Shown one piece after another: positions 6,229 through 22,724 of a DNA stretch of 64,000 nt. Positions within the stretch are counted from its first letter, which is position 1, and every line of letters starts with the position of its first letter. This DNA comes from an uncultured Eubacteriales bacterium. GTDB taxonomy: Bacteria > Bacillota > Clostridia > Oscillospirales > UMGS1783. The notes under the pieces are model-generated. The model did no database searches and was not told the origin of the DNA. It was given only the letters and a program-made list of their open reading frames with translations. A program made the position numbers and the translations under genes. The stretch lies in assembly GCA_934456365.1 (NCBI GenBank), contig CAKSHC010000002.1, forward strand, positions 160,508 to 224,507, given 5' to 3'.

Positions 6229-7281
6229 TCAGTCCTTTCCTTTTTTTTCCATTTTACCACGATCCCCGGGGCTTGTCAAGGCGGCGGGGAGATAGGGGCG
6301 AAAGGCGGAAGGGAGGGCATAGCGGGTTTCGAGCTCCTGCGGGGAGGCCCAGACAAGGCCGGGCAGCTCGGGCGGCTCGGAAAGCTCGTAGCCCTGCATG
6401 CGCCATTCCACATGGGAAAAGAGATGCTTGGCGGGGCCGAGGCTTTGGGCGCCGGGAAGGGAATCGGCCGGGACAAAGCCGGGGAGCATGGGAAACTGCC
6501 AAAGCCCGGCAAGCAGGCCGGAATCCGGCCTTTTTTGCAGGGCGATGAGCCCCTTGCGGCGGCAAATCAGAACCGTCCATTCCTCGACGCGGCGCTCTTT
6601 CTTTTTGCGGGGAAGGGGATAGGCGCTTTGGGCCTCTTCGGCAAAGGCCCGGCAATGGGCTTGCAGGGGGCAGAGAGCGCAGCGGGGGACGCCGTTTGGC
6701 AGGCAGAGCACCTCGCCCAGCTCCATCAGCCCTTCGGTGAGGATTCTGGCGCTTTCGCCGGGGCGATAGAGGGGCAGGAGCCATTCGCGCGCCGTTTTGC
6801 GGGTTTTGGGATCGCCTCCGTCGAGGGGGAGGGCAAGCAGGCGGGCGAGGACGCGAACGACGTTGCCGTCTACCGCCGGTTCGGGGCGGAGGAAGGCGAT
6901 GGAGGCGATGGCGCCGGCGGTGTAGTCGCCCACGCCGGGGAGGTCGAGAAGCTCCCGGCGCGACGAGGGCATATTCCCTCCGAAGCGCTCGACGATCACG
7001 CGGGCGGCTTTTTGCAGGTTGCGGGCGCGGGAATAATAGCCGAGGCCTTCCCAGAGCTTGAGCAGGTCTTCCTCGCGGACTTCGGCGAGCGCGGGGATAT
7101 CCGGCAAAGCGGCGAGGAAGCGCTCGTAGGTGGAGATGGCGGCCTCGATGCGGGTTTGCTGGAGCATGATCTCACTGATCCAGACGTGGTAAGGCGAAGG
7201 GTCGGCTCGCCAGGGGAGGGGGCGGCCGTTTTGCTCAAACCAGGGGATCAGCTTTTCGGGGAGAAAGGAGAGATCGGGCAT
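6229..7281 (-). CDS. mutY: A/G-specific adenine DNA glycosylase
   Basis: HhH-GPD region (LPGVGDYTAGAIASIAF...VDGNVVRVLARL), a C-x6-C-x2-C-x5-C iron-sulfur loop, and a C-terminal NUDIX-like GLWQFP motif. Confidence 0.85.
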   Translation of the reverse strand: MPDLSFLPEKLIPWFEQNGRPLPWRADPSPYHVWISEIMLQQTRIEAAISTYERFLAALPDIPALAEVREEDLLKLWEGLGYYSRARNLQKAARVIVERFGGNMPSSRRELLDLPGVGDYTAGAIASIAFLRPEPAVDGNVVRVLARLLALPLDGGDPKTRKTAREWLLPLYRPGESARILTEGLMELGEVLCLPNGVPRCALCPLQAHCRAFAEEAQSAYPLPRKKKERRVEEWTVLICRRKGLIALQKRPDSGLLAGLWQFPMLPGFVPADSLPGAQSLGPAKHLFSHVEWRMQGYELSEPPELPGLVWASPQELETRYALPSAFRPYLPAALTSPGDRGKMEKKGKD

Positions 7282-7282
7282 A

Positions 7283-7837
7283 TCAGCTCTCCTTTTTTTC
7301 GATCAGAAAGAAGAAGGGGGCCGCGGGGGAATTGACGATGCGCACCAGGGTGGCGCAGAAGGCGAAGCGGCTGAGGGCGGAGAGCTCTTGGCGGATGAGC
7401 TCGCCCTCGGCGGCTCCCTCGGGGTGCCCGGGATAGACGGCCACCAGCAGCGCTCCGCCGGGGGCGAGGAGCTCCAGGGCGGCGCGGATGGCGGGCAGGG
7501 TGCTTTCGCGGCGGGTGGTCACGCTTTTATCGCCGCCCGGGAGCCAGCCGAGGTTGAAGAGCCCGGCGGCGATCGGCTCGGGGATATGGGCTTTGGCGTT
7601 GGCGTGGGAATCGTGGATCAGGGTGACGTTTTCGCGGCCATGCTCTTTTAAGAGGGCGGCCGTTTTGGAGAGGGCCTGGTCCTGGATATCGAAGGCATAG
7701 ACGCGCCCGGTTTCGCCGACCTGCTCGGAGAGCCAGAGGGTGTCGTGGCCGTTGCCCATGGTGAAATCCGCGGCGGCGGCGCCGGGGAAGAGGTGCGGCG
7801 CGATCAGCGCTTTTTGGGTGGAGAGAAGATCGATCAT
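7283..7837 (-). CDS. class I SAM-dependent methyltransferase (putative rRNA methylase, YtqB-like)
   Basis: 184 aa. The motif DFTMGNGHDTL...YAFDIQ fits the small putative rRNA methylase family. Confidence 0.65.
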   Translation of the reverse strand: MIDLLSTQKALIAPHLFPGAAAADFTMGNGHDTLWLSEQVGETGRVYAFDIQDQALSKTAALLKEHGRENVTLIHDSHANAKAHIPEPIAAGLFNLGWLPGGDKSVTTRRESTLPAIRAALELLAPGGALLVAVYPGHPEGAAEGELIRQELSALSRFAFCATLVRIVNSPAAPFFFLIEKKES

Positions 7838-8796
7838 TCTCTTACCTCGCTTTGCGGGAAGCGGGATTCGGTGAACTCGCGCAGGGCCCCGTCGTAGCGC
7901 GCGGGATCGGTCACGCGCAGGTGGGAATGCTTGCCGTGGGGGAACCAGACGACCATTTTATCGCTCTTTGTGCGGGCGATGATCTGTTCGGCGCGCTCGG
8001 GGAGGGAGAACACGTCTTCCCGGCTGTGGAGGAAGAGGATGGGGACTTTCAGGCGGGGCACAGAATAGTAGGGCCCGTGGGTGAAGGGATTTTTCCCGCT
8101 GTGGAGGAAGAGGAGGAACATGCATTCCTGCAGAACGGGGAAGGTGGGCTTATGGAGCTGCTTCATGTGGGTGCGGAAGGTTTCGGCGAAGGTGGTGAAG
8201 GCCCCGTCGGCGATCACGCCGTCCACGCAGCCCGGGCAGGCCGGATCGGTTGCGGCATAGAGGGCGGTGGCGCTGCCGATGCAGACGCCGTGGAGCAGCA
8301 CGCGCTGGCCCATTTTTTCCAGAAGGCGAAGCCAGGCGAGAACGTCGCGGTACTCGCGCAGGCCGACGGTATTGTATTTCCCGTCGCTTTTGCCGTGGGC
8401 GCGCCCGTCGATGACCAGCACGTTATAGCCGAGGGCTTTGTAGGGGATGGCGAAGTAGTAGGAATAGGTGAGGGCTTCGGCGCGGCCGGAGAGGAGAAAG
8501 ACGGTGCGGGGAAAGCCGAAGTCGAACCATTCGCCGTAGAGGTTGAAGCCGTCGTTTTGGATGTGCAGATCGGTTTTATGGGCGGCGTTTTGGGCACCCC
8601 AGGCCATGCCTTCATTGAACATGCGCACAGCCTCGGGATCCTCGGGGAAGGAGCAGACGCCGCGCGCCCAGTCGCTTTTCGAGCGGCGCACGAGCTGGCG
8701 GCGGTAAACGTCGGCTGCGAGGGGGAAGGTGAAGCAGAAAAGCCCCACCACCGATAGGGCCAGAAGGCCCAGCAAGATCCAGAAAATCAGCTCCAT
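7834..8796 (-). CDS. membrane-anchored alpha/beta hydrolase
   Basis: N-terminal TM helix, HGKSDG and GVCIGSAT nucleophile-elbow motifs. Confidence 0.7.
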   Translation of the reverse strand: MELIFWILLGLLALSVVGLFCFTFPLAADVYRRQLVRRSKSDWARGVCSFPEDPEAVRMFNEGMAWGAQNAAHKTDLHIQNDGFNLYGEWFDFGFPRTVFLLSGRAEALTYSYYFAIPYKALGYNVLVIDGRAHGKSDGKYNTVGLREYRDVLAWLRLLEKMGQRVLLHGVCIGSATALYAATDPACPGCVDGVIADGAFTTFAETFRTHMKQLHKPTFPVLQECMFLLFLHSGKNPFTHGPYYSVPRLKVPILFLHSREDVFSLPERAEQIIARTKSDKMVVWFPHGKHSHLRVTDPARYDGALREFTESRFPQSEVRE

Positions 8797-8806
8797 TGGC
8801 TTCTCC

Positions 8807-10375
8807 TTACGAGTGGGTCACGCCCACGATCAATTCATCCACATCCTGCCCGCCCCAGATCACACCGGTATCGGTGAGCGGGAAGGCTTCACGCAGCGTA
8901 TCCTCCAGGGCATAGCAATCGTCGGCGTTCAGGGACTGGCCGTAGAACAGGACGGCCATTTCGCGATCCTTTTCGGGGATTTGAGAAAGAGCCCGGCAGA
9001 GGACCTCGCCGCGGTCTTCTCCGGCTGCGATCAGGCGGCGGTCCAGCAGGGCCACGCAGTCGCCCTCGCGGCAGGAAACGCCGCCGATCTCGGCTTGGCG
9101 CACGGCGCGGCACAGGCGCAGGGTGGCGACGCTTTCCATGCCGCGCTGCATGGCGGCAAACTGGATGGCGGGATCGGTTTCCTGCGGGACGATCATGGAG
9201 AGGGCGAAGTAGCCCTCGACGAGCGAGCGGGTGGGCAGGATCCGCACGGTTTTCTTTTCGAAGAGCTCGGTGGCCTGCCGGGCGGCGGGGAGAAGGTCGG
9301 GATCGTTGGGGAGGACGATGATGGAATCGGCGTTGAGCGAGCGGTAGGCCTGGAGGAACTCCTCGGTGGAGGTGTTCATGGTTTGGCCGGCGTTGATCAC
9401 GAGGTCGCAGCCGAGGGATTCGAAGGTTTCGAGAAACCCGTCGCCCTGGGCGGCGGCGACGAAGGCGATGGCCTTATGCTCGCGCGCCGGCTCGGCGGGG
9501 GAGGCGGCGGCTTCGTCCATATTTTCGATTTTGGCGTGGACGAAGGTGCCGTATTTTTCGGCCTTTTGGAAGACCTCGAGCGGTTTTTTGGTGTGGACGT
9601 GGACCTTCACCAGGTCCCCTTCGCGGATGGCGACGATGGAGCGGCCGAGCGTTTTCAGATAGTCGATAAAGGAATCGATGTCGAAGCTCAGGTCGCGCTC
9701 GGGCAGGCGCAGGAGAAATTCGGTGCAGAAGCCGTAGGGCTCCTCCTTCTGCGGGTAGTTGACGGCCGAGCGCACGCTTAAGAGCCCTTCCACGCTGCCT
9801 TTGGAGAAGAGGGTGACCAGGCCCTGGCCGCCGCTGTCGACCACGCCGGCCTCCTTGAGGACGGGAAGCATTTCGGGGGTGCGGGAAAGGGTTTTGGCGC
9901 AGGCGTCGCGATAGATCGCCCAGAGCTCTTCGGCGGGAAGGCCCTCGCGAACGGCGGCCTGCGCCGCCCGGGCGCCTTCGCGCGAAACGGTGAGGATGGT
10001 GCCCTCGGTGGGGTTGACCACGGCGGCGGCCGCCTTTTCGGCGCCCCGGCGCAGGGCCTGGGCCAAGAGGGCGGCGTCGGCGCTTTCGTGGCCTTCAAAT
10101 GCCTGCGCGATACCCTTAAAGAGCTGCGACAAAATGACGCCCGAATTGCCGCGCGCGCCGAGCAGCATGCCCAGCGAGAGCTCGGCGGCGTATTGGCCGA
10201 GGTTTTCGTTGGAGCGGGCGCGGTTGAGCCCGTTTTCCACCGTCAGGCGCATATTGGTGCCGGTGTCGCCGTCGGACACCGGGAAAACGTTCATGGCGTT
10301 GATGGCCGTTTCCTGATTTTTCAGATTTTGCCAGCCGACCCGCACGAGGGTCTCAAAGAATGTTCCGGTCAACAT
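8807..10375 (-). CDS. fakA: DAK2-domain fusion protein YloV (fatty acid kinase ATP-binding subunit FakA family)
   Basis: The DGDTGTNM Dak2/DhaL motif near the N-terminus and the 522-aa length match YloV/FakA. Confidence 0.75.
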   Translation of the reverse strand: MLTGTFFETLVRVGWQNLKNQETAINAMNVFPVSDGDTGTNMRLTVENGLNRARSNENLGQYAAELSLGMLLGARGNSGVILSQLFKGIAQAFEGHESADAALLAQALRRGAEKAAAAVVNPTEGTILTVSREGARAAQAAVREGLPAEELWAIYRDACAKTLSRTPEMLPVLKEAGVVDSGGQGLVTLFSKGSVEGLLSVRSAVNYPQKEEPYGFCTEFLLRLPERDLSFDIDSFIDYLKTLGRSIVAIREGDLVKVHVHTKKPLEVFQKAEKYGTFVHAKIENMDEAAASPAEPAREHKAIAFVAAAQGDGFLETFESLGCDLVINAGQTMNTSTEEFLQAYRSLNADSIIVLPNDPDLLPAARQATELFEKKTVRILPTRSLVEGYFALSMIVPQETDPAIQFAAMQRGMESVATLRLCRAVRQAEIGGVSCREGDCVALLDRRLIAAGEDRGEVLCRALSQIPEKDREMAVLFYGQSLNADDCYALEDTLREAFPLTDTGVIWGGQDVDELIVGVTHS

Positions 10376-10384
10376 GTAGTCTCC

Positions 10385-11716
10385 TTACTTCCGGTCTTTG
10401 CCGATGGCGTCGATCGACGCGGGCAAAAAGAGCGACAGGATCGCCGAAGCCACCGCAGCGGCGATCACGAGATAGGGCATGGCGAAGCTCAGGCCGGCGT
10501 TTTTCAGATTGATCCAGACCGGCCCGACGGCCACGGCGGTGGCCAGGCCGGAGAAGAGGCCCTGGACGGCGAAATACATGGCCGGGTGCGACACGCCCTT
10601 ATCCACGGCGTCGCGGTGGGCGAGCGCCGAGGGGATCACATAGCCGACCGAGAAGAAGCTGCCCACGCCGAAGGAGGCGCACAAAGCGCCCAGGCAGGCA
10701 ATCGGCAGGCGCAGCGCCTGCGGCAGCGTTGCCGCCAGCGACATGGCGCACATGGCCACGATGAAGGTGCCGATCGAATAAAGATAGCCGACGCGGAAGC
10801 CGAATTTATGCACGATCTTGTTATAAAGCAAAAGGGTGAAGGGCACGGGGGCAAACACGCAGGCGGTGAGCACCGTGATCTGCCAGCCGACGAAAAGAAG
10901 GGTGCCGGAATAGTAGACGTTCTGGGCGGTGAGGAAAAGCTGAAGACAAAACTGCAGCGCGCAGTAGACGCCCATCCAGAGCCAGAAATGGCCGTTTTTG
11001 AAGGTGTATTTCAAGGATTCGATCATCCCGACCTGCTTTTCCACCGCAAGCTCCGGCTGATCCTTTTTGAGCGAGGAGGGCTCCTTGATGAGGAAGAGGG
11101 GGATGAGCATGGTGAGCACGAAGGGCAGGCAGATCAGGGCGATGGTGCGGATGTTGAGGTTGCCGACCAGCAGGGGGATCAGGGCATAGCCGACCACGAA
11201 ATAGATGATGTCGAAGGTGGATTTATAATTGGAAAGGCGCAGACGATCCTGCTCGTTGTCCACGATCTCGGAGAAGGTGGCATAATAGGTGACCATCACC
11301 AAGGTGTAGGCGCTGTAGAAGAGGCAGAGCAGGAAGCCGAACCAGACGGTGTTGAGCAGGCTCTCGCCGTTGGTGAGGGGCAGGAGGAAGAGGAGGTAGG
11401 CCGCGATCATGGGGATCATACCCGCCACGATCGAGGGGCGGCGGCGGCCGAAACGTGAGCGCAGGTTGTCGGTCAGGCTGGCGAGGGGGATGTCGATCAG
11501 CCCGTCGACGATCTTGGCTACCAGCACCAGCACGCTCCAGATCCCGGCGACGACCAGCGTTTTATTGAGGTAGGTCCAGTTTTCGATGTTTTTGGAAAAG
11601 CCCTGGGTCATGAGCGCGTCGCAAAGGTAGGAGGTGACGATCAGGTTGAGAAGATTGACCCCGCAGCCGCTGGCGGCATAGAGAAAGAGGGTGGATTTTT
11701 TCTGAATGGTTTTCAT
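10385..11716 (-). CDS. MFS transporter, GPH/MFS_2-like (D-x-x-G-R-R-R-P loop motif)
   Basis: 443 aa with about 12 TM segments. The LASLTDNLRSRFGRRRP motif between TM2 and TM3 is typical of the MelB/MFSD2A-type subfamily. Confidence 0.7.
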   Translation of the reverse strand: MKTIQKKSTLFLYAASGCGVNLLNLIVTSYLCDALMTQGFSKNIENWTYLNKTLVVAGIWSVLVLVAKIVDGLIDIPLASLTDNLRSRFGRRRPSIVAGMIPMIAAYLLFLLPLTNGESLLNTVWFGFLLCLFYSAYTLVMVTYYATFSEIVDNEQDRLRLSNYKSTFDIIYFVVGYALIPLLVGNLNIRTIALICLPFVLTMLIPLFLIKEPSSLKKDQPELAVEKQVGMIESLKYTFKNGHFWLWMGVYCALQFCLQLFLTAQNVYYSGTLLFVGWQITVLTACVFAPVPFTLLLYNKIVHKFGFRVGYLYSIGTFIVAMCAMSLAATLPQALRLPIACLGALCASFGVGSFFSVGYVIPSALAHRDAVDKGVSHPAMYFAVQGLFSGLATAVAVGPVWINLKNAGLSFAMPYLVIAAAVASAILSLFLPASIDAIGKDRK

Positions 11717-11720
11717 CGGT

Positions 11721-12674
11721 TCATGCCTTTCCCAGAATATGATCGATCAAAGCCTTTTCTTCGGCGAGATCCTCGGAGATGGGCTTGCCGAAATAATAGG
11801 CCGACATCAGCCCCGGGCCGACGTTGACTCCGTTGGCGGGGTAGACCTCGGTGAGCAGGATCTCTTTGGGAGCGAAGGTTTCGCGCACAAGCTCGACCAA
11901 AAGCTCGGCCTGCCTTTTCCGATCGGAATAGGCGATCACCACGATCTGCTCGGAGGGGTTTTCAATGGTTTTTTCCATATAGCGCAGGATGGCGTCGAGC
12001 CCGGCGCGCTCGCCCTTGGCCTTGCCCAAAACGGTGGTTTTGCCGCTCCGGTCGATCTCACCGAGAGGCTTGATGCCCACCAGTGTGCCAAAGAAGGCGG
12101 CACTGCCCGAAACGCGCCCTTTGCGGGCCACAAAGGTCAGATCGTCGAGCCAGCCCATCTGGTGGAAGCGGTCGCGGTTGGCGAGGAGCCAGGCGGCCGT
12201 TTCGTCAAGGCTTTCGCCGGCGGCGCGGTGGAGAGAGGCATGAATGGCCATCAGGCCGAAAAGGGAGGTGTAGCGTTTGGTATCCACGCAGATCACCCGC
12301 CGTCCGGGGCAGGCGGCCATGGCTTCCTCGGCGCCCCGGCAGGCGAAATCGTAGGTGCCGGAAAGGCCGGAGGAGATGGTGAGGCAGAGCACATCTTCGC
12401 CCTTTTTCAGATGCTCCTGAAAGGCGAGGGAGAATTCGGTGATGTTGGCCGGAGAGGTGGTATAGACGGCGTCTTTACGGCGCAGGGAGGCGTAGAAATC
12501 CTTCTGCGGCATGAAATCCCATTCGCAGCGGGAAGGGCGCTCGGTTTTATCGGGCAGGGTGATGTGTCCCGGGATCACCTCGATCCCGAATCTTTTCTGC
12601 AGCTCGGGGGAGAGGTCGCAGGTAACGTCGGCCAGGATGGTAAAAGACATGGCAAAGCTCCTTTCAGCAATCAC
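11721..12674 (-). CDS. DegV family fatty-acid-binding protein (FakB-like)
   Basis: 317 aa. The N-terminus ILADVTCDLSPELQKRFGIEVIPGHITL and the length fit DegV/EDD-domain proteins. Confidence 0.85.
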   Translation of the reverse strand: MIAERSFAMSFTILADVTCDLSPELQKRFGIEVIPGHITLPDKTERPSRCEWDFMPQKDFYASLRRKDAVYTTSPANITEFSLAFQEHLKKGEDVLCLTISSGLSGTYDFACRGAEEAMAACPGRRVICVDTKRYTSLFGLMAIHASLHRAAGESLDETAAWLLANRDRFHQMGWLDDLTFVARKGRVSGSAAFFGTLVGIKPLGEIDRSGKTTVLGKAKGERAGLDAILRYMEKTIENPSEQIVVIAYSDRKRQAELLVELVRETFAPKEILLTEVYPANGVNVGPGLMSAYYFGKPISEDLAEEKALIDHILGKA

Positions 12675-13587
12675 AGCTTGTCAAAAATTCGGAGAGGGCC
12701 TTTTCCAGCGGCGCACCGCCGGACAGAAAGCCCACGGCATGACCCGAGGCGGGCGAAAGGAAGAGCTCCTTACGCGCGGCGCAGGCCCTGTAGTTTTGCA
12801 GGGTATCGTCCGGGGAAACGACCCGGTCGGTTTCGGTGTGGAGAAAAAAGGTCGGAGTCCGGCAGCGAGAGAAGGCCTGCACCGTATCGCCGCCGGCGAG
12901 GGATGCGTGGGCAAAGAGGCGGGCAAAGAAATCGATCCCGCGGGCGATCAGAGGGGCAAAGGGGCCGAAGACCGGGCGGGCCAGACGGGTGATCTGCCGC
13001 AAGGGGGAGCGAAAGCCGCAGTCCACCATCAGAGCGTGCACGAAATCCGGCATTCGATCGGACAGGCGGGCAACGGTGTGGCCGCCCATGGAAAGGCCGC
13101 AGACCAGACAGGGCTCACCGCGGCGGCGGGCGGAGAGCTCGGTCAGCCAGCGGGCGAGGTCCTTTTCCTCGAGGGCTCCCAGGGTGATGCGGCGGCCGCC
13201 GCTTTCGCCGTGGCCGCGCTGCTCGATCATCAGGAGGTTGTAGCCGCGGCGGCGCAGGAAAAGCCCGAGTGAAGAAAAGTTGCTCAGATAAAAGGCCCGA
13301 TAGCCATGGACAAAAAGCGCTGTGCGGGAAAAGCCGCCGTCGTAGAAATGGCCGACGAGGCGGGCGCCGTCCTGTGCCCGGATTTCCCATTTTTGGGAGG
13401 GGAGGGCGCGGAGCTGAGCCATATCCTCCTTGAGGCGGGCGGCATAAGGGGCGTAGTGGGTGCGCGAAAGATCCAGCTCGTCGAGCGGGGGATCGGTGCC
13501 GCGGCGGGTGATCCGCTCAAAGAGAAAGAGGCAGATGGCAAAATAGATCAGAAGATTTCCCAGCAGGATCAGGAGAGCGATGGCCAT
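12664..13587 (-). CDS. membrane-anchored alpha/beta hydrolase (possible thioesterase/lipase)
   Basis: N-terminal TM helix, HGYRAFY...GHGESGG and GLSMGGHT serine-hydrolase motifs. Confidence 0.7.
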   Translation of the reverse strand: MAIALLILLGNLLIYFAICLFLFERITRRGTDPPLDELDLSRTHYAPYAARLKEDMAQLRALPSQKWEIRAQDGARLVGHFYDGGFSRTALFVHGYRAFYLSNFSSLGLFLRRRGYNLLMIEQRGHGESGGRRITLGALEEKDLARWLTELSARRRGEPCLVCGLSMGGHTVARLSDRMPDFVHALMVDCGFRSPLRQITRLARPVFGPFAPLIARGIDFFARLFAHASLAGGDTVQAFSRCRTPTFFLHTETDRVVSPDDTLQNYRACAARKELFLSPASGHAVGFLSGGAPLEKALSEFLTSCDC

Positions 13588-14576
13588 GTTGCCTCCTCTC
13601 CCCGCAGCCCGTCTTCGGTTTGCCGGACAAAAAAGCAGCGCAGTGAGGCCAGCTCATTTCCGGCGACCGAAAGGAAGACATCCGGCAGAGGCTGAAAGCT
13701 TTTGACCGGGGCATTTTCGGTTTCGATGGTTTTCGGTTCAAAACGCCCGGAGCCGAAGGCTTTGAAAAGGGCTTCCTTTTGGGTCCAGACCATCAGGAGC
13801 TTTTCCGGGCAAATGGCTTTCGCTTCCCGCTCGGTGAGAAAATGCCGGGCGGCGCCGTCTGGCGGGATGGCGCGGGCTTTGGCCTCCAGATCCACTCCCA
13901 CCGGTTTGCGGGAGAGGGCGACGGCGGCAAAGGAGCCGCTGTGGGACAGCGACAGGAAGCAGCGCTCGGAGAGGGGCTTGCCGTCGGCATTTTTATGGAC
14001 GGCGGCCCTTTCGGGGGTGAGCCCCAGCGAGCGGAAGAGGGCATACCCGAGCAAAAGACGGGCGAAGGCTCTTCTGCGCTTTTCCTCGCCCTCCGGCATG
14101 GCCGCCACCTCGGGATCTTTGATCGCGGGCAAAGGCGCGTCCGAGGCGATGGGAAGCAGGTAGACATCAAGCAGGGGACGCTCGCGCAGCGACCGGCGCA
14201 GCGCCTCGGCCTGGGTGCAGACCGGCTTTCCCGTCAGGCAGGAGGTGGCGAAATGCTCGCAGTTGTTGGTGAGGATATGGTAGCCGCGTTCGCCGAGGCG
14301 CGAAAGCGCGCACTGGGCGACCTTTTCGCGCGGGCGGGCCTGCAAACGCTCGAGGGGCGAGAGGGAGCAGACCTCCAAAAAGCCGCCGGCCAGGAAATCG
14401 GACAGGTCGGTGGCGAGCACCTCGATCTGCTCGGCGGGGGTGGGGTCGTGGTGGATGGGGTTGCGGCCGAACTGGACCACGCAGTCATCCGAGAGGTAGA
14501 CCCCGTAGTGGTAGAGCCCGTGGAAGCCGACCCGGATCAGGTCGCCGCGGCGGGCGGAGGTCAGGATCCATTTCAT
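13569..14576 (-). CDS. fusion protein: N-terminal LRAT/NlpC-P60-type papain-like acyltransferase domain joined to a C-terminal Sfp-type 4'-phosphopantetheinyl transferase
   Basis: The N-terminal roughly 130 aa carry HYGVY and NNCEHFATSC, the LRAT His/Cys catalytic motifs. The C-terminal half carries GKPL, LSLSHSG, GVDLE and WTQKEALFKAFG, which are the Sfp/EntD PPTase motifs. Confidence 0.65.
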   Translation of the reverse strand: MKWILTSARRGDLIRVGFHGLYHYGVYLSDDCVVQFGRNPIHHDPTPAEQIEVLATDLSDFLAGGFLEVCSLSPLERLQARPREKVAQCALSRLGERGYHILTNNCEHFATSCLTGKPVCTQAEALRRSLRERPLLDVYLLPIASDAPLPAIKDPEVAAMPEGEEKRRRAFARLLLGYALFRSLGLTPERAAVHKNADGKPLSERCFLSLSHSGSFAAVALSRKPVGVDLEAKARAIPPDGAARHFLTEREAKAICPEKLLMVWTQKEALFKAFGSGRFEPKTIETENAPVKSFQPLPDVFLSVAGNELASLRCFFVRQTEDGLRGEEATWPSLS

Positions 14577-14827
14577 TGGGCCGTTTTCGCCTCGATGAAA
14601 TCCACCACCTGAGAAACGGTTGTGAAATCGCCCATGCTCACCCCATCGAAGCGGATGTCAAAGGCCTCCTCGATGGCGATGACGATATAGAGGATCCCGA
14701 CCGATGAGAGACCGAGGTCGGTATGCAGATTGCTCTGCTCGGTCAGGCCGGCCAGTTTCTCTTCCGGCACGCTTCCCATCTGGCGGAGGATATCCGTCAG
14801 CTTTTCAAGAATGATCGCTCTGCGCAT
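14573..14827 (-). CDS. acyl carrier protein (stand-alone)
   Basis: 84 aa. The DLGLSSVGI motif is a phosphopantetheine-attachment site. Its start overlaps the PPTase-fusion gene by ATGA. Confidence 0.75.
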   Translation of the reverse strand: MRRAIILEKLTDILRQMGSVPEEKLAGLTEQSNLHTDLGLSSVGILYIVIAIEEAFDIRFDGVSMGDFTTVSQVVDFIEAKTAQ

Positions 14828-16319
14828 TTTTCTCCCTCAGAATCTTCATGCTGGGCGAACGCTCGAAATCGGCGTCGCGCACGATGATTTTGCTGACCCG
14901 TTCAAAGCCCGGCAGCCCGGCGTTGATTTTTTCCACTTCGGCGCGGATATGCGCTTCGGGATCGGCGATGCCCTGCGCCTTCAGGACGACCTGGCGCGGC
15001 ACCACCTGCAGGGAAAGGACCCCGTGGGAATCGACATAGACCAGGGAATCCTGGACGGCCTCGATGGTGTTGAAAAGCGTTTCCAGCTCGGCCGGAGAAA
15101 CCTTCTCGCCCGAGGGGAGCACCAGAACCTCCTTGATGCGGCCGGTGATGTAGAGGAAGCCTTCTTCGTCGAAGCGGACGAGGTCGCCGGTGCGCAGCCA
15201 GCCGTCGCAGAAGGCCTGCTTGTTGGCTTCGGGATCGAGGTAACCGTCCATGATGTTTTCGCCGCGCAGCCAGAGCTCGCCGTCGACGATCTTAAGCTCC
15301 TGTCCGGGATAGGGGAGGCCGACGGACGAGGGCTTTTTCAGGCTTTCGGGGTTGCCCGAAACGAGGTTGGCGCTTTCGGTGAGGCCGTAGCCGGCCAGCA
15401 GGGCGATGCCGAGCTTATCGTATTCCCGGATGAGGTAGGGCGGGACGACGGCGGCGCCGCAGACGATGGTTTTCAGATCGTCGCCGAGCATATTGCGGCC
15501 GAACTGCTTGGAGAGGTTGAGCGCCATTTCGGCTAGCGCCGGCACCATGACCATCACGGTGGGGCGGAAGGCGGCGATGTCGCGGAACATATCCTTGTTG
15601 TTGCGGGTGATGAAGATGGAGGAGCCGGTATAGAGCGAGGAGAGCAGGTTGCGGATCAGGCCGAAGACGTGGGTCAGCGGCAGGACCAGCAGGTAGCGCT
15701 GGCCGAAGATATCATGGATGCCGTAGCAGCCGTTGCGCACGCCGGCCATCAGCGCCCGGTGCGACAGCAGCGCGGCCTTGCTCTTTCCGGTGGTGCCGCC
15801 GGTGAAGAGCACGGTGGCGGGATCCTCGGGGGAAAGCTTGGCCATCGGCGCGCCCTGCTCGGGCAGGGAGGCGGCGGTGAATACGGGAACGCCGGTTTTT
15901 TCGGCGGCGAGAGCGGTGTTGGGCAGCATCGGCTCGCAGGAGAGGAGCGCCTTGAGGGAAAAGCCCGCGGTGCAGCCCAAAACGGCCTCGGCCGGGAGGT
16001 GGGGCGGCAGAAGCACAGCCACGCAGCCCGCGGTGGCGGCGCCGAGGAAGAAGACGGCGAAATCGGCGCAGTTGGGAAGATAGAGGCCGACCCGATCGCC
16101 CTTTTTCACGCCTTTTTCGGCCAGCGCCCGGCGCACCCGGGCTGCGCGCTCCTCCAGAGCGGAGAAGGAAAGGGTTTCTCCGTCGACCACGGCGGGCGAA
16201 TCGCCGTACTGGGAAAGGCAGCTTTCCCACATCTCGGCAAGGGTGGGATAGCTTCGGATGCGGGCGAAGGTTTCGGGGGTGGTGTAGGCGGCAAAGCACT
16301 CGAGCTTGGGATCGGTCAT
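14805..16319 (-). CDS. AMP-dependent synthetase/ligase (fatty acyl-AMP ligase or acyl-carrier-protein synthetase-like)
   Basis: ANL motifs FTGGTTGKSKAALLSH (A3) and GYGLTESAN (A5). 504 aa. Confidence 0.8.
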   Translation of the reverse strand: MTDPKLECFAAYTTPETFARIRSYPTLAEMWESCLSQYGDSPAVVDGETLSFSALEERAARVRRALAEKGVKKGDRVGLYLPNCADFAVFFLGAATAGCVAVLLPPHLPAEAVLGCTAGFSLKALLSCEPMLPNTALAAEKTGVPVFTAASLPEQGAPMAKLSPEDPATVLFTGGTTGKSKAALLSHRALMAGVRNGCYGIHDIFGQRYLLVLPLTHVFGLIRNLLSSLYTGSSIFITRNNKDMFRDIAAFRPTVMVMVPALAEMALNLSKQFGRNMLGDDLKTIVCGAAVVPPYLIREYDKLGIALLAGYGLTESANLVSGNPESLKKPSSVGLPYPGQELKIVDGELWLRGENIMDGYLDPEANKQAFCDGWLRTGDLVRFDEEGFLYITGRIKEVLVLPSGEKVSPAELETLFNTIEAVQDSLVYVDSHGVLSLQVVPRQVVLKAQGIADPEAHIRAEVEKINAGLPGFERVSKIIVRDADFERSPSMKILREKNAQSDHS

Positions 16320-16321
16320 AA

Positions 16322-17578
16322 TCAGTCCTCCTTTTCGGTCAGTGATTTTAATTTCAGCTCGGTTTCATGGAGCTCGTTTGCGATTCGTTCGATCTCCTGC
16401 ATGGGGGGAAGGCCCTTGCAGGCGGGCAGGGCAACCGGCGCGCCGAAGGCCAGCTTCTGACGGTGCAGGATGTTTTTGCGCGGGGCGATATAGACCGGGA
16501 CGATGGGCACGCCGGCGCGCAGGGCCATGAGGATCATGCCGGTTTTGAAGGCGCCGACGGGGTCGCCGGTGCGGTTGAGGCCGCCCTCGGGGAAGATCTG
16601 GATGGCGCAGCCCGCCTTGAGCTCCTCTTCGACCAGCCGGAAGGAGGAGAGGCGGAAGTCGGCCTTATCCACGGGGATGCAGTGGAGCTGGCGGAAGAGC
16701 CAGGTGAGAAAATCGTTGGCGTAGAGCGCGCGGGTGGCCAGCGAATGCAGCCGGCGGAACCATACGGCCATCAGCATGATGACGGGGTCCAGGAAGGAGC
16801 GGTGGTTGGCCATATACAGAACGCCGCCCCGGGGGTGCTTTTTCGCTTCGTCGTTGAGATAGAAGCGCTTGGGGCGAAGAAAGAGCCAAAGCGGGAGGGC
16901 GCCAGTGACGCGCACGAATTCGTAGAAGACGTGGTTTTTCGGCGGCTCGAGGCGCTTTTCCTCCAAAAGGCGGCCCAGGGTGGCCACCCGGGCGCGCAGC
17001 AGCTCGGTCACGGCGGCGAGGTTTTCCTTTTCGGAGAGGGAATCGTCCCAATGCTCGGACACGAGAAAGGGCTTGCCGATGATGACCCGCGCGCGGCGCG
17101 GGGAGAAGTAGGAGCCGTTGGTGTAGACGGGGATAATGGGCTTGCCCGAAAGATGGGCCAGGTAGACGGCGCTGGTTTTGAAGGGCAGGAGGGGCGTTTC
17201 ATCCTTTCGCGGCAGGCGCGATTCAGGGAAAATGCCGACCACGCCGCCCTTTTCGAGGATGGCGAGGCATTCGCTGAGGAAGGAGAAGTTTTTCGAGCTG
17301 CGGTCCACGAAGATTCCGCCCATGGCCCGCAGAAAGGGGCCGAGCAGCTTTTTGCGAAAGAGCACCTCGGCCATGAGGGTGCGCAGGGTGCGGCCGAAAA
17401 AGACAAAGAGCAAAACGGCGTAGTCGAAAACCGAGGTATGGTTGCAGACCACGATCGCTCCGCCCCGGATGCGCCGGCTCTGGGCGGCTTTCTCTTCGTA
17501 GTAGACCTTGGTGCGGAAGCAGAACCACTGGATGGGCCAGGCCGTGATCTTCACGAAGGCGTTGAAAAAGCGGATCAT
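16322..17578 (-). CDS. tandem lysophospholipid-acyltransferase (PlsC/LPLAT) didomain protein
   Basis: Two HX4D acyltransferase motifs in one 418-aa polypeptide: VCNHTSVFD in the N-terminal half and MANHRSFLD in the C-terminal half. Confidence 0.75.
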   Translation of the reverse strand: MIRFFNAFVKITAWPIQWFCFRTKVYYEEKAAQSRRIRGGAIVVCNHTSVFDYAVLLFVFFGRTLRTLMAEVLFRKKLLGPFLRAMGGIFVDRSSKNFSFLSECLAILEKGGVVGIFPESRLPRKDETPLLPFKTSAVYLAHLSGKPIIPVYTNGSYFSPRRARVIIGKPFLVSEHWDDSLSEKENLAAVTELLRARVATLGRLLEEKRLEPPKNHVFYEFVRVTGALPLWLFLRPKRFYLNDEAKKHPRGGVLYMANHRSFLDPVIMLMAVWFRRLHSLATRALYANDFLTWLFRQLHCIPVDKADFRLSSFRLVEEELKAGCAIQIFPEGGLNRTGDPVGAFKTGMILMALRAGVPIVPVYIAPRKNILHRQKLAFGAPVALPACKGLPPMQEIERIANELHETELKLKSLTEKED

Positions 17579-19458
17579 GCGCAGTCCCTCCCGGAAAGGA
17601 GGCGGCAGAAGTCCTCCACGGTGGCCGGGGCTTCCTGCCCGTCGGGCAGAGAGAAGCCGTAGGCGTCCTGAAGGGACGAGAGGAGGGAGAAATAATCCAG
17701 CGAGGAGCCGTTGAGGTCGAAGAAGAAGTTGGACTGCGGGGAGATGCCCTCGGGCTCGCGGTCGAGCGCCTGGGCAAACAGGCGGATCAGGGCATCGGTC
17801 AGCTCGCTGCGGCTTTCCTGAGCCGCTTCCCGGCCGGCGGGGCGCAGCTCGCCGTGCGCGAGGCGCTCAGCCAGTCGCTTGCGGCTGAGCTTGAAGTCCT
17901 CCGGCAAAAGGAGGGGGGAAACGGTCAGATAGAGCCCGACCTTGCCCAAAAGCCCGAGGCGGGAAAGCTCCTTCTGCGCTGCGTCGCGCAGGGCGGCGCA
18001 GGTCGCCTCGTCGGCAAAGGGGGAGAGCTGGATGAGAAGGGTGGGGCCGGAAACAAGGGCGAAGCCTTCGTTTTCCGGAAGCGAGAGCGAGGCTTCGATG
18101 AGGGTGGGGTTGAGGTTTTCCCCATCCGGGCCGATGACAAGATCGTCTTTCCGTCCGGCGAGGTAGAGGCGACCCTTTTTCAGCTCGGCCAGGTCGTCTG
18201 TTTTGAGCCAGCCGTCGGGCTTTTCCAGTTCACTGGCGGAGGTGAAAACGCGTTGGGCGGTGGTTTCGCCCCGCAGGAAGAGCTCGCCTTGCTCGGTTTT
18301 GTAGAAAACCGAGGCGAAGGGCTTTCCCGCCGAGCCGGAGATGCGCGTGCGGGGCACGCGGGAGAGCTCGACCGAGGTGATGCCGGCCTCGGTCATGCCG
18401 TAGCCGTTGGAAAGGCGGTAGCCGATGGCGTTGAAGAAGAGGAGCGTTTCGCGGGAAATGGCGCTGCCGCCGGCGATGGTGAAGCGGATGCTGCTGCCGA
18501 ACATTTTTGCGCGCACCGAAGAAAAAGCCAGCCTGGAAAAGAGCTTTGCCAGAAGCGGAAGGCCGGAAATGCGGTCATAGAGACGCAGGGCGCTTTGGAG
18601 CCTTTTCTCCTGCCCGGTTTTGCGGGCCTCGCGCAGCGCGGCGGCATAGACCTTATTCCAGAAGAGGGGCACGCAGAAGATGTGCGTGATCCCGTGCCAG
18701 CGCACCGTTTTGAGCACGGTATCGGGGGTGAGGTCGTTGAGGAAAACGAAGGTGCGCGAGAAGAAGGCGAACCACAGGTAAACGGCGAAGAGGCCGAAGA
18801 TATGATACAGAGGCAAAACGACCAGCTGCTTGAGGTGGCCCTGATAAAAGCCCTTCATATCGGGGCTTTTGCGGATGATGCGGCCGCTGTCGAAGATCTG
18901 CGCGGCAAGATTTGCGCCGGTATAGGCGCAGAGCTTGACCTCGCCGCCCGTGCCGGAGGACATCAGAAGAAGCTCGTTTGCCCAATGCGCTTCGGCCTCG
19001 CCTTCGTCCAAAAAGGGAGCCACGGTGGGGACGGCATAGGACGCCTCTTCGCTGACCACGGCGGCAACCTGATTGGCTGTCAGCAGCCGGTCGAGCGTTT
19101 GGCGATCCAGGCGGGTGTTGAGCAAAAGCGGGCGAAAGCCGAGCTGGGCGAGAGCCCACATCACGCAGAGGAAGTCCGGTCCGTTGGGCAGGGAAAGCCC
19201 TACGATCCGGCCTCTTTCCACGCCCGCAAGGCGCACGGAAAGGCCTGCGGCGAAGGCGCGGGTGCGCCGGTCGAAGTCGCCGTAGGTCATGAAATTCGTG
19301 TGCCCGCCGTCGCGGCTTTCGCAGAACACGGCGTCGCGCTGCTCGACGATCATTTCGTAGATCTCGTGCAGGGTGCGCCCGCTTGCCGCCAGGCGCGTGA
19401 CCTTATCGGCCACGAAGGCATCAATGGTTGAAAATCCACCGAGGAAATCTGGTTTCAC
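17575..19458 (-). CDS. adenylation (AMP-binding) domain fused to a C-terminal carrier (PCP/ACP-like) domain
   Basis: GTG start with a ggaaagga RBS. It has a deviant A3 motif LMSSGTGGEVK and a YGMTE A5 motif. The C-terminal FFDLNGSSLDYFSLLSSL resembles a thiolation-domain Ser motif. Confidence 0.7.
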   Translation of the reverse strand: MKPDFLGGFSTIDAFVADKVTRLAASGRTLHEIYEMIVEQRDAVFCESRDGGHTNFMTYGDFDRRTRAFAAGLSVRLAGVERGRIVGLSLPNGPDFLCVMWALAQLGFRPLLLNTRLDRQTLDRLLTANQVAAVVSEEASYAVPTVAPFLDEGEAEAHWANELLLMSSGTGGEVKLCAYTGANLAAQIFDSGRIIRKSPDMKGFYQGHLKQLVVLPLYHIFGLFAVYLWFAFFSRTFVFLNDLTPDTVLKTVRWHGITHIFCVPLFWNKVYAAALREARKTGQEKRLQSALRLYDRISGLPLLAKLFSRLAFSSVRAKMFGSSIRFTIAGGSAISRETLLFFNAIGYRLSNGYGMTEAGITSVELSRVPRTRISGSAGKPFASVFYKTEQGELFLRGETTAQRVFTSASELEKPDGWLKTDDLAELKKGRLYLAGRKDDLVIGPDGENLNPTLIEASLSLPENEGFALVSGPTLLIQLSPFADEATCAALRDAAQKELSRLGLLGKVGLYLTVSPLLLPEDFKLSRKRLAERLAHGELRPAGREAAQESRSELTDALIRLFAQALDREPEGISPQSNFFFDLNGSSLDYFSLLSSLQDAYGFSLPDGQEAPATVEDFCRLLSGRDCA

Positions 19459-19543
19459 GAAGCGTCCTTTCCCGATCGGTTTATTCTATGTGCGCCATAA
19501 GGGCAAAAGACCCGTCGATTTTTGACGAAAACACACATATTTA

Positions 19544-19572
19544 ATATTAACAGAACGGTCATTCTTTGTCAA
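19544..19572 (-). promoter_or_regulatory. strong sigma-A promoter driving the minus-strand lipid-module gene run
   Basis: On the minus strand: TTGACA-N17-TAATAT. An approximately 75-nt leader runs to the GTG start at 19458. Confidence 0.5.
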
Positions 19573-19632: not shown

Positions 19633-19836
19633 TTATTCGGCTTTTTCGTTTTTTTCGGCGTTTTCCCCGGCCTTGGGGTCATCTCCCTCGGCGGCGGGTT
19701 TTTCTTCTTCGGGAGCAGCCCAGGCGTCGGCCTTCTGCACTCCGGTGGAAACCGTGTGGACAATGCTCTTGCCCAGCTGGGTAAAGGCCTTTCCGAGGCC
19801 GGTGCCCGTTTTTTTCCATTCGTCTCTCAATGCCAT
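19633..19836 (-). CDS. small protein (67 aa) with an acidic low-complexity tail
   Basis: MALRDEWKKTGTGLGKAF...EEKPAAEGDDPKAGENAEKNEKAE. A ggaaagggga RBS sits 6 nt upstream. The track ORF 19633..20178 has a spurious N-terminal extension. Confidence 0.4.
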   Translation of the reverse strand: MALRDEWKKTGTGLGKAFTQLGKSIVHTVSTGVQKADAWAAPEEEKPAAEGDDPKAGENAEKNEKAE

Positions 19837-20258
19837 TGTGAAAATCCCCTTTCCGGATTGAATTTTTCCAAAAGAGCCAGGGCGGATTCGATCCGTCCAG
19901 CCACATTGCCGGGGGCCAGCCCGGCCACGGCGGTGTTGCACTGGTCCATCGGGATGAGAATGCGCCGGGCGCGCGAGCGGGCCACGGCGGCGGCCATGGC
20001 GGGGGTGACCTCGCCTAAAAGCGCGTCGGCCATCACGATCCCCATCGGGCCTAAGATCACGTCGGCCTCGCGGCAGGCGACGATCACGGCGTTTTCTCCG
20101 GTGGCGCCCTTGGCGGGGCCGCCCTTGAGCATGGTCTGGGTGGCGGCCGAATTGGTGCCCACGGCGCGGATGGCGCACTCGGGCAGCCGTTCGGCCACGG
20201 CCTTGACGAGGAGCTTTCCCAAAGCGCCGCCCTGCCCGTCGATGATCAGAACGTTCAT
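19827..20258 (-). CDS. hypothetical protein (DUF3842-like)
   Basis: 143 aa, MNVLIIDGQGGALGKLLV... Its start overlaps the stop of the upstream capD-like gene by 4 nt. Confidence 0.45.
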   Translation of the reverse strand: MNVLIIDGQGGALGKLLVKAVAERLPECAIRAVGTNSAATQTMLKGGPAKGATGENAVIVACREADVILGPMGIVMADALLGEVTPAMAAAVARSRARRILIPMDQCNTAVAGLAPGNVAGRIESALALLEKFNPERGFSQWH

Positions 20259-22111: not shown

Positions 22112-22112
22112 G

Positions 22113-22724
22113 TCAACCTTCCTTTTCCGCCCGCTTCCGGCTTTCCCGATAGGAGAATTCGCAGCCGCACCAGCTTTGCCGGTACAGCCCGTATTCCTTC
22201 GAGAGGGCAAGCGAGCGCAAGTATCCGTTTTCTTTTTTGAAATCCGACGGCAGCCAGCGCACTCCCGCGCGCCTGGCCGCTTCTTCGCCCAGCTCGTTGA
22301 CCCAGTCGGCATTCTTATGGGGCGACACCGAGAGGGTGGAGCAGAGCCAGGGGAAGCCGTTTGCACGGGCGAATTCCGCCGCGCGAAAAAGGCGCAGCGC
22401 ATAGCAGGCGCGGCAGCGCGCTCCCCGCTCCGGCTCGTCGCCGAAGCGCTCGGCCAGAGGGGCGAAGTCCTGCGGGGAGTAGAGCTCCTCGATCAGGGGG
22501 ATCCCCCGTTGGGCGAGAAACCACCGCTCTTCCTCGGCGCGGCGCCGGTATTCCTCCGGCGGGGCGATGTTGGGATTATAAAAATAGACCGTCAGATCAA
22601 AATGGGGAGCCAAGCGCTCAACCACGCTCGACGAGCAGGGGGCGCAGCAGGCATGCAGAAGCAGCCGGGGGCGATCCGTCTGCACGGCGAGGATCTCCCG
22701 CATCTCGGTGTTCCAGCGGCGCAA
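22113..22724 (-). CDS. queH: epoxyqueuosine reductase QueH (DUF208)
   Basis: The LLLHACCAPCSS motif and the conserved Cys pattern. TTG start with a GGAGG RBS. The stop sits 1 nt from the capD-like start. Confidence 0.8.
   Translation of the reverse strand: MRRWNTEMREILAVQTDRPRLLLHACCAPCSSSVVERLAPHFDLTVYFYNPNIAPPEEYRRRAEEERWFLAQRGIPLIEELYSPQDFAPLAERFGDEPERGARCRACYALRLFRAAEFARANGFPWLCSTLSVSPHKNADWVNELGEEAARRAGVRWLPSDFKKENGYLRSLALSKEYGLYRQSWCGCEFSYRESRKRAEKEG

Follow-up and report, generated by a model that had tools for sequence, protein, structure and literature searches.

A ten-gene operon of gut Clostridia that joins carrier proteins, acyltransferases and fatty acid kinase genes: a candidate lipid-salvage system

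Overview

A 64-kb stretch of DNA from an uncultured Eubacteriales bacterium (assembly GCA_934456365.1, contig CAKSHC010000002.1, positions 160,508 to 224,507), hereafter the window, carries on its minus strand an operon of ten genes, in which ligases, carrier proteins and acyltransferases are combined with fatty acid kinase (Fak) genes and with membrane-anchored hydrolases. The genes are labelled g1 to g10 in the order of transcription, g10 ending at position 7834. The domains of the products, their intact catalytic motifs and a conserved, modular synteny are directly observed, and in the window a Fak/hydrolase block and a carrier/acyltransferase block are fused into a single operon. An initial annotation had proposed an uncharacterised, co-localised carrier/acyltransferase/Fak system, distinct from a plain PlsX/PlsY/PlsC set, and this core proposal holds: the synteny recurs in related genomes and the operon contains no such set. 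Beyond the identity of the domains, the statements made here on function are what we infer from them. The reading that we favour is a system for the uptake of outside fatty acids and lysolipids and their reacylation into membrane lipid, although our confidence in it is evenly balanced, and the individual steps of the scheme are held far more loosely than the general function.

Organisation of the operon

Nine open reading frames (ORFs), between 19458 and 8807 on the minus strand, had been described as an operon downstream of one promoter. Their coordinates, their junctions and the TTGACA-17-TAATAT promoter were verified, and a Pfam search of each ORF returned exactly the set of domains that had been predicted. 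The nine genes stand as described, but the conserved unit is larger, and a tenth gene (7834-8796) belongs to it. Its features, in the direction of transcription, are as follows; A-T denotes an adenylation-thiolation didomain, ACP an acyl carrier protein, FAS fatty acid synthase, PPTase a phosphopantetheinyl transferase and TM a transmembrane segment.

19626-19605, minus strand: strong terminator of the upstream gene, directly preceding the operon promoter
19544..19572, minus strand: promoter, TTGACA-17-TAATAT, sigma-70-type with a TG extension, 10/12 match, about 85 nt 5' of the g1 start
17575..19458, minus strand: g1, A-T didomain, 627 aa (Pfam AMP-binding 1e-39 and PP-binding 1.5e-7)
16322..17578, minus strand: g2, tandem PlsC/LPLAT-type acyltransferase with domains a and b, 418 aa (Pfam Acyltransferase in 2 stretches, 2e-48)
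14805..16319, minus strand: g3, stand-alone acyl-CoA-synthetase-like ligase, 504 aa (Pfam AMP-binding 2.9e-69 and AMP-binding_C_3)
14573..14827, minus strand: g4, stand-alone FAS-type ACP, 84 aa (Pfam PP-binding)
13569..14576, minus strand: g5, LRAT::PPTase fusion and signature gene of the cluster, 335 aa (Pfam LRAT 3e-19 and ACPS 1e-9)
12664..13587, minus strand: g6, alpha/beta hydrolase with a Ser nucleophile, 307 aa (Pfam Hydrolase_4 8.6e-21; TM at residues 1-27)
11721..12674, minus strand: g7, DegV/FakB-like protein, 317 aa from GTG or 309 aa from ATG 12653 (Pfam DegV 1.8e-53)
10385..11716, minus strand: g8, MFS_2/GPH-type cation-coupled transporter, 443 aa (Pfam MFS_2 4.9e-34)
8807..10375, minus strand: g9, FakA/YloV-type fatty acid kinase catalytic subunit, 522 aa (Pfam Dak2, FakA-like_M and FakA-like_C)
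7834..8796, minus strand: g10, second alpha/beta hydrolase with an N-terminal TM anchor and a Cys nucleophile, 320 aa (Pfam Hydrolase_4/Abhydrolase_1)

The genes are closely packed, with overlaps between g1 and g2 (4 nt), g3 and g4 (23 nt), g4 and g5 (4 nt), g5 and g6 (19 nt) and g6 and g7 (11 nt), and with gaps between g2 and g3 (2 nt), g7 and g8 (4 nt), g8 and g9 (9 nt) and g9 and g10 (10 nt). Gene callers start the DegV protein at ATG 12653 (309 aa) instead of GTG 12674, in which case the g6/g7 junction is a 10-nt gap. The terminator at 19626-19605 closes the upstream gene and therefore sets the 5' boundary of the operon. Within the window, Rfam matched a single tRNA and neither a riboswitch nor a leader, and no paralogues of the cluster genes were found elsewhere in the 64 kb.

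Conservation and modular build of the cluster

The distribution of the cluster was followed by a scan for the LRAT::PPTase pattern in one genome per GTDB species, and 80 loci were fetched for comparison, synteny being read from tblastn searches with the window proteins. At least 567 species-level genomes carry the signature gene. Among the records of the fetched loci, 78 are titled Clostridia or a taxon within it, including Oscillospiraceae, Acutalibacteraceae, Christensenellaceae and Ruminococcus, and the titles of the remaining two read 'Acidiphilium sp. CAG:727' and 'Candidatus Coproplasma sp.'. A tag for the host or organ (rumen, colon, cecum) is part of many isolate names. The Acidiphilium record (L059; FR898414.1) holds the complete ten-gene cluster and its title looks like a mislabel of the binning era, the cluster being otherwise almost confined to records titled Clostridia.

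Gene order is conserved among the related loci at 30-60% protein identity, so that co-localisation across Clostridia, on which the earlier proposal depended, is borne out; since the order recurs in dozens of species-level genomes at such identities, the arrangement is beyond chance. Two main layouts can be distinguished. Type A, with the full order g1-g2-g3-g4-g5-g6-g7-g8-g9-g10, was present in 16 of the 80 loci. Type B, found in 24 of them, has the order g1-MFS-PlsC-PlsC-ligase-ACP-LRAT::PPTase, with the PlsC domains encoded by separate genes and a gene for a TM-anchored Ser hydrolase next in line. Where enough downstream sequence was available, g6, g7, g9 and g10 were all present in 23 loci, all absent in 23 and partly present in 2. 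Smaller sets also occur: four loci (L015, L032, L040, L076) have only PlsC-b, ligase, ACP, LRAT::PPTase and hydrolase, and another (L048) has the A-T protein and PlsC-a without PlsC-b, ligase or ACP. These recurrent subsets indicate a modular build from {A-T, PlsC-a, usually MFS}, {PlsC-b, ligase, ACP}, {LRAT::PPTase, hydrolase} and an optional Fak block. The reduced sets {PlsC-b, ligase, ACP} and {A-T, PlsC-a} are each an Aas-like unit of synthetase and acyltransferase.

Two further gene families accompany the cluster in related genomes; the first is absent from the window, and the second has no member next to the cluster there. A third TM-anchored Ser alpha/beta hydrolase of about 366 aa, with the motif GHSWGG, is found in 36 of the 80 loci; it follows the LRAT::PPTase gene in type B loci (L005:11026-12126, L013:11018-12127) and stands after g10 in several type A loci (L041, L047, L048, L059, L060). 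Directly 3' of the cluster, 34 of the 80 loci encode small membrane proteins of 150-200 aa with a zinc ribbon at the N terminus and DUF4190-like TM segments (among them L002, L010, L011, L013, L017, L019, L046, L047, L051, L059 and L060), often in 2-6 tandem copies and in both type A and type B loci (L013:12153-12689; L017:12148-15438).

Ligases and carrier proteins

Catalytic motifs were judged on alignments of 26-71 orthologues per protein. The A-T didomain g1 has an invariant His219 in motif A4, Lys523 in motif A10 and carrier Ser586 (60 of 60 orthologues), and the stand-alone ligase g3 an invariant His217 and Lys492 together with the TGD and GYGLTE motifs (65 of 65); motifs A3, A5, A7, A8 and A10 (Lys) are invariant or nearly so in both. 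The carrier g4, which NCBIfam ACP models match at scores under their cut-offs, has Ser42 within DLGL[SN]S in all 71 orthologues. The carrier serines and the HX4D boxes of the acyltransferase, the absence of which would have told against the earlier proposal, are invariant.

The form of motif A4 is informative about the substrate. In the ANL superfamily, P-L-x-H-x-F-G is typical of acyl- and aryl-CoA synthetases, whereas amino-acid domains of non-ribosomal peptide synthetases (NRPS) have an Asp. Motif A4 reads LP[FL][YC]H[VI]FG in g1 (His in 60/60) and LPL[TS]HVFG in g3 (His in 65/65); the Asp of the amino-acid type (FDxS, which binds the alpha-amino group) is in neither, and the amino-acid model TIGR01733 stays under its cut-off for both. 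The nearest PDB relatives of g1 are 4-chlorobenzoate-CoA ligase, MenE and FadD13, and those of g3 are oxalate-CoA ligase, FadD13 and 4CL. The His motif and these acyl- or aryl-CoA-ligase-like neighbours make an alpha-amino acid an unlikely substrate for either enzyme. Judged on these features, g1 is a predicted adenylating enzyme of the acyl/aryl-acid type fused to a carrier like those of peptide synthetases, and g3 is a putative acyl-ACP synthetase for g4.

The 504-aa ligase g3 had been labelled as a relative of the fatty acyl-AMP ligases (FAAL). PDB neighbours at E<=1e-20 are acyl-CoA synthetases, with FadD10 as the sole named FAAL-type enzyme among them, and the AMP-binding match is shorter than the Pfam model and does not suggest the FAAL insertion, as read from the length of the match and not from an explicit alignment to FAAL. 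Because the nearest solved relatives are acyl-CoA synthetases, the label is not supported.

These motifs also bear on a second proposal of the initial annotation, in which the operon would make an N-acyl amino-acid lipid or a similar membrane lipid, and on the related readings of an aminolipid, as made by OlsF, OlsBA and GlsAB, or of a fatty-acid amide, as made by the Clostridial fatty-acid amide (FAA) pathway. PlsC-type O-acyltransferases take part in the synthesis of ornithine and glycine lipids, and a weak match to OlsF is present in the cluster. The LRAT domain of g5 could in principle form an amide, given that PLAAT enzymes can N-acylate phosphatidylethanolamine. Against this, the OlsF match reaches 21.7 bits where the model's cut-off is 620, both adenylation domains carry the invariant His of acyl-CoA synthetases and not the amino-acid Asp, and Pfam found neither an N-acyltransferase of the OlsB/GlsB type nor a condensation domain in the ten proteins. 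The free-standing condensation domain OaaC, which the FAA pathway requires (PMC13310621), is absent here. An aminolipid or amide product is, on this evidence, most improbable, and the proposal has lost ground. A Dlt-like system for D-alanylation was likewise rejected, there being no MBOAT protein or DltD and no amino-acid-type adenylation domain.

Acyltransferase and transporter

In each half of g2, the HX4D box and the FPE and P motifs do not vary among orthologues, and in many other genomes its two domains are two separate genes. NCBIfam scores are 143 bits for the AGPAT domain, 130 bits for the Aas-type acyl-[ACP]-phospholipid acyltransferase (PRK08633) and 50 bits for E. coli PlsC. The Aas scores lie far below the cut-offs of their models (130 bits against 1221 for PRK08633, 36 bits against 886 for PRK08043), and the synthetases g1 and g3 are separate genes. 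g2 is predicted to be an acyltransferase of the PlsC/LPLAT type with its catalytic motifs intact. A plain PlsX/PlsY/PlsC set was rejected as an identity for the cluster, none of those genes being present; plsX and plsY were found neither in the operon nor in the 64-kb window, as searched with Pfam and with tblastn of the cluster region.

As a single sequence, the transporter g8 matched in the PDB only the lysophosphatidylcholine (lysoPC) symporters of the MFSD2A type (E = 2.5e-4), and a profile of 25 sequences matched four MFSD2A orthologues (best E = 2.5e-7) and no MelB. The D71xxxD75 pair in TM2 is invariant in orthologues, and no LplT model in NCBIfam is matched. These similarities suggest that g8 may be a lysolipid importer or flippase. 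The MFS_2 proteins of type B loci (L005:4973-6916 and others) are about 640 aa long, some 200 aa longer than g8, and their C-terminal extension has about four extra hydrophobic helices with no Pfam match.

The LRAT::PPTase fusion

An AlphaFold2 model of g5, with a mean pLDDT (predicted local distance difference test) of 86.5, was compared with known structures by Foldseek. The N-terminal third of the protein was matched by PLAAT2/3/4 with target TM-scores of 0.71-0.80, and the C-terminal two-thirds by Sfp, human AASDHPPT and PptT with E as low as 3.5e-9. In the LRAT half, His23, Gln35 and Cys106 (within NCEHF) are invariant in orthologues, Gln35 replacing the His35 of PLAAT enzymes; in the PPTase half, D229, W264, K267, E268 and K272 are invariant, corresponding to the acidic residues and the W..KE..K motif. 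The modelled fold is that of a papain-like LRAT/PLAAT protein of the NlpC/P60 superfamily with a Cys-His active site, a putative acyl hydrolase or acyl transferase, in the N-terminal half, and that of a two-lobed, Sfp-type 4'-phosphopantetheinyl transferase in the C-terminal half.

Many homologues of g5 share this two-domain architecture, and exact copies of g5 were found only in ENA and Logan metagenome contigs. A cluster variant (L083:2871-3302) encodes a stand-alone LRAT protein of 143 aa without a PPTase, and the retention of the LRAT domain outside the fusion suggests that the domain probably contributes to the pathway independently of the PPTase. A full-text literature search found no paper that mentions both LRAT and phosphopantetheinyl transferase.

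Fatty acid kinase genes and the Cys hydrolase

Of the two Fak proteins, g9 scores 485 bits against the YloV model TIGR03599 (cut-off 396) and 342 bits against the S. aureus FakA equivalog, which is not reached (cut-off 975). Its Mg/ATP-binding DGDTG motif, Cys217 and His259/261 are invariant in orthologues, and with its Dak2, Zn-binding middle and C-terminal domains g9 fits the definition of a FakA protein by sequence. The partner g7 scores 187 bits against the DegV model TIGR00762 (cut-off 99.7) and 93 bits against the FakB1 equivalog (cut-off 350, not reached); it fits the definition of the DegV-fold partner and is a putative fatty-acid binder.

Both alpha/beta hydrolases have intact triads, with GxS166MG, D254 and H283 of g6 invariant in 30 of 30 orthologues and GxC172xG, D261 and H290 of g10 invariant in 26 of 26 cluster orthologues. 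The Cys of g10 aligns with a Ser in g6 and in the third hydrolase of type B loci, and G-x-Cys-x-G is present at the nucleophile elbow in about 110 of 120 wider homologues. A g10 profile found in the PDB the Pf2001 esterase, other carboxylesterases and monoglyceride lipases, and one homologue carries the NCBI label 'lysophospholipase'. Both g6 and g10 have an N-terminal TM anchor and, because basic residues follow the helix, an N-out/C-in orientation is predicted.

The genomic context of g10 links it to the kinase. It follows the FakA-like gene in 23 of the 24 loci that have such a gene and at least 6.5 kb of sequence 3' of g5. The context was also examined for seven g10 homologues of 45-48% identity, all seven of which lie beside FakA, so that the Cys hydrolase can be regarded as a Fak-associated protein. 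Five of the seven adjoin, divergently, a DegV-DegV-FakA-PlsX operon, which ties the Fak block to the canonical assimilation of exogenous fatty acids. The remaining two are in variants of the cluster. One of these (L083), in a metagenome-assembled genome of Lachnospiraceae, has A-T, tandem PlsC, ACP, the 143-aa LRAT protein, hydrolase, DegV, FakA and Cys hydrolase, with no second ligase and no MFS protein; the other (L085) has PlsC, ligase, ACP, hydrolase, DegV, MFS_2, FakA and Cys hydrolase, without LRAT::PPTase.

Fak islands outside the cluster (L084, L086, L087, L088, L089) show two Hydrolase_4 genes and a GT2 gene, then PlsX-FakA-DegV-DegV, then the divergent Cys hydrolase. They also carry, beside the latter, a polysaccharide-deacetylase-like gene (PF01522/DUF2334), and a TMEM164-family gene lies near the island in L087 and L088. 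By itself, such an island may serve to scavenge lipids. Island FakA proteins are 36-38% identical to g9, the same as its cluster orthologues and, being equally similar, they suggest that g9 is probably an ordinary fatty acid kinase.

The same observation could be taken to mean that housekeeping Fak genes have come to lie beside an unrelated carrier/acyltransferase cluster by accident: g9 is no closer to its orthologues in the cluster than to island FakA, and many genomes have the blocks apart from each other (type B loci and Fak-PlsX islands). A chance juxtaposition is very unlikely, however, when no fewer than 16 species-level genomes keep the fused ten-gene order at 30-60% identity, with the transporter gene relocated between degV and fakA and with coupling at the translational level through overlaps and gaps of 2-10 nt. 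Both L083 and L085, moreover, keep Fak genes with carriers.

A possible salvage scheme

The gut supplies phosphatidylcholine from bile, lysoPC and free fatty acids, and threatens bacterial membranes with pancreatic and Paneth-cell phospholipase A2 (PLA2). Under the salvage reading, g8 would import or flip lysolipid, and FakA and DegV (g9 and g7) would turn free fatty acids into acyl-phosphate. The Sfp-type half of g5 would first convert both carriers to their holo form, after which g1 and g3 would activate fatty acids as acyl-AMP and load them as thioesters onto two carriers, the T domain of g1 and the ACP g4. The LPLAT domains might each draw on one carrier (g2a with g1, g2b with g3/g4), with g2 filling sn-1 and sn-2 of a lysophospholipid or of a glycerophospho-backbone. 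Deacylation would fall to the membrane hydrolases g6 and g10 together with the PLAAT-like half of g5, freeing acyl chains or lysolipids from phospholipid of native or foreign origin, and g10 may possibly act as a transacylase through an acyl-thioester intermediate. The benefit would be the incorporation of host and dietary lipid and the repair of PLA2-damaged membrane in the gut.

Support for this reading comes from the Fak block adjoining plsX elsewhere, from the MFSD2A relatives of g8 and from a score of g2 on the Aas-type model PRK08633 that far exceeds that for PlsC. The acyl-CoA-synthetase form of motif A4 in both ligases, the PLAAT-like fold in g5, the matches of g10 to esterases and monoglyceride lipases and the recurrence of synthetase-acyltransferase units in reduced loci count in its favour as well. 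The initial annotation had set salvage on a dedicated carrier beside an aminolipid, and salvage is the side that gained from the analysis.

A more specific version of the scheme, with two steps of new chemistry, can be envisaged. The PLAAT-like domain would pass acyl chains from phospholipid of the host, the diet or the cell itself through an acyl-Cys, directly and without ATP, to the phosphopantetheine thiol of a carrier docked by the PPTase. The Cys hydrolase would take up the acyl group of acyl-phosphate or of lipid esters as an enzyme thioester and hand it on, linking fatty acid kinase, without PlsX, to thioester-dependent acyltransferases. That both parts are right is quite improbable.

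Several points weigh against the salvage reading. Firstly, the nearest solved relatives of g1 are ligases of aryl acids (4-chlorobenzoate, o-succinylbenzoate), at low identity, and with such neighbours g1 may load no fatty acid at all. Secondly, the MFSD2A match of g8 covers about 120 residues, approximately TM2-TM4, and contains the general GPH motif, while the MelB/GPH models of NCBIfam also match (E about 1e-13), so that g8 could carry sugar or export a product, and its lysolipid assignment is a lead rather than proof. Thirdly, plsX and plsY are missing from the operon, and some variants are without the transporter, the PPTase or the LRAT domain. A private PPTase with two private carriers is a combination met more often in secondary-metabolite clusters than in the housekeeping repair of lipids, the kinase and ligase routes of activation coexist without explanation, and all donors and acceptors in the scheme are assigned by inference.

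Some of these points would suit a cluster that makes a specialised lipid, perhaps for export. Here g1 would load a non-fatty acid (hydroxy, aryl or other) as acceptor or head group, g3 and g4 would give fatty acyl-ACP, the PlsC-type domains would acylate a tethered or released intermediate, g10 or the LRAT domain would offload it and the MFS_2 protein would export it. The NRPS-like A-T didomain, the second carrier and the private Sfp-type PPTase are hallmarks of natural-product clusters, and the nearest structures to g1 fit an aryl substrate. The invariant Cys of g10 fits as well, since Cys-nucleophile alpha/beta hydrolases are often transacylases, such as polyhydroxyalkanoate synthases and some offloading thioesterases, and no gene has an NCBIfam equivalog. 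However, Pfam found no ketosynthase, condensation, reductase or thioesterase domain and no tailoring enzyme among the cluster proteins. Loci without g3/g4 or without g1 keep a pair of synthetase and acyltransferase, which argues for parallel donor modules and not for a donor and an acceptor; the Cys hydrolase is tied to FakA/PlsX loci and not to carriers, and the transporter resembles importers and flippases. A specialised lipid appears unlikely, although of the alternatives to salvage it is the one that we take most seriously. An ether-lipid system like ElbD, or a system of the CAR type, was rejected, there being no reductase domain.

Neighbouring genes

Downstream of g10, with a 4-nt overlap and then a 1-nt gap, lie an rRNA-methylase-like gene (g11; PF06962; 7283-7837, minus strand) and mutY (g12; 6229-7281, minus strand). 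The first strong terminator 3' of the operon genes is at 5925-5903, past mutY, and g11 and mutY are probably co-transcribed with the lipid operon. They were considered as members of the system and dropped for want of conservation with the cluster: by tblastn, neither these genes nor the upstream DUF3842 and CapD-like genes occur in any of the 80 related loci.

The best promoter-like match of the region (6279-6251, minus strand; TTGACA-17-TAAAAT, 11/12, with TG) falls within the 3'-terminal part of mutY, ahead of a 60-aa ORF that gene callers annotate in an identical metagenome contig. Upstream of the operon, a separate unit made up of ORFs at 19827-20258, 19636-19836 and 20255-22402 (minus strand) ends at the terminator at 19626-19605; it encodes a CapD-like protein, a DUF3842 protein and a 67-aa Lys/Glu-rich protein. 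The CapD-like ORF of 715 aa has probably been called too long at its N terminus, since gene callers give 618-621 aa. An ORF on the plus strand (2436-5894) encodes 1152 aa with a signal-like N-terminus, Gly-rich GGGV repeats, two Cys/His-rich segments (HxCxCG...), a weak CBM_X2 match and, at its end, a hydrophobic helix and basic tail after an NPNTG motif. The product is probably a wall-anchored surface protein.

Significance and comparison with known systems

To our knowledge, the way in which Gram-positive gut anaerobes handle lysophospholipids and use the flux of host and dietary phospholipids and fatty acids is largely unknown. The cluster, with its distribution among gut and rumen Clostridia, is a concrete and testable candidate for this missing function. 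If the salvage reading is right, the cluster would shape membrane composition and resistance to bile and to the PLA2 secreted by the host, with a possible effect on the pool of lysolipids and fatty acids to which the host is exposed. Two unexplored types of protein are part of it, the LRAT::PPTase fusion and a large, FakA-tied family of Cys-nucleophile alpha/beta hydrolases. A full-text literature search found no paper on the cluster, the fusion or the hydrolase family, and NCBIfam holds no equivalog for any of the cluster proteins.

Systems that share parts or purposes with the operon are nevertheless known. S. aureus handles lysophosphatidylglycerol by means of LpgD and PlsC (PMC10404611), and the problem is the same, namely the removal or recycling of lysophospholipid in a Gram-positive membrane; however, the operon has no phospholipase D of the GDPD type, and in S. 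aureus no carriers, ligases or transporter are dedicated to the purpose. The NRPS-like, OaaC-type FAA pathway also belongs to gut Clostridia and also captures exogenous fatty acids with an adenylating enzyme and a carrier protein. It needs a free-standing condensation domain that forms the amide (PMC13310621), whereas the operon has PlsC-type O-acyltransferases in place of such a domain.

Each protein class of the mammalian Lands cycle, namely PLAAT, MFSD2A, AGPAT/LPLAT, ACSL and ABHD, is matched by a protein or domain of the operon, and the salvage scheme would share the logic of that cycle. The similarity is remote (about 20-26% identity), and the operon uses thioesters of carrier proteins and not of CoA. 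The PLAAT-like domain differs from mammalian PLAAT enzymes in that it has no C-terminal membrane anchor, is fused to a PPTase and has Gln35, not His, as its third residue.

With the Fak system of Firmicutes, which works with PlsX, the operon shares a DegV protein (g7) and a kinase (g9) that has all the domains of FakA and scores above the YloV cut-off, and the same genes stand beside plsX in related genomes. The operon differs in having no plsX, in embedding the Fak pair among ligases, carriers, acyltransferases and two membrane hydrolases, and in a g7 that falls far under the FakB1 cut-off.

The LplT/Aas system of E. coli protects against phospholipase A2; the sole system of transport and reacylation to have been defined, it has been identified only in Gram-negative bacteria, and other lysolipid transporters may exist (PMC11416262). 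In both systems an MFS transporter is combined with an acyl-carrier synthetase and with an LPLAT-type acyltransferase that has an acyl-carrier donor. The transporter of the operon, however, is MFS_2/MFSD2A-like and not of the LplT family; synthetase and acyltransferase are separate proteins, two of each, in place of the bifunctional Aas; private carriers (the fused T domain and the ACP) and a PPTase take the place of the housekeeping ACP; and a PLAAT-like domain, membrane hydrolases and Fak genes are added. By analogy, and with about as much to be said for the view as against it, the operon may be a Gram-positive functional counterpart of LplT/Aas and Fak combined, not itself a member of the LplT/Aas system, with Fak parts that fit the definitions of their families.

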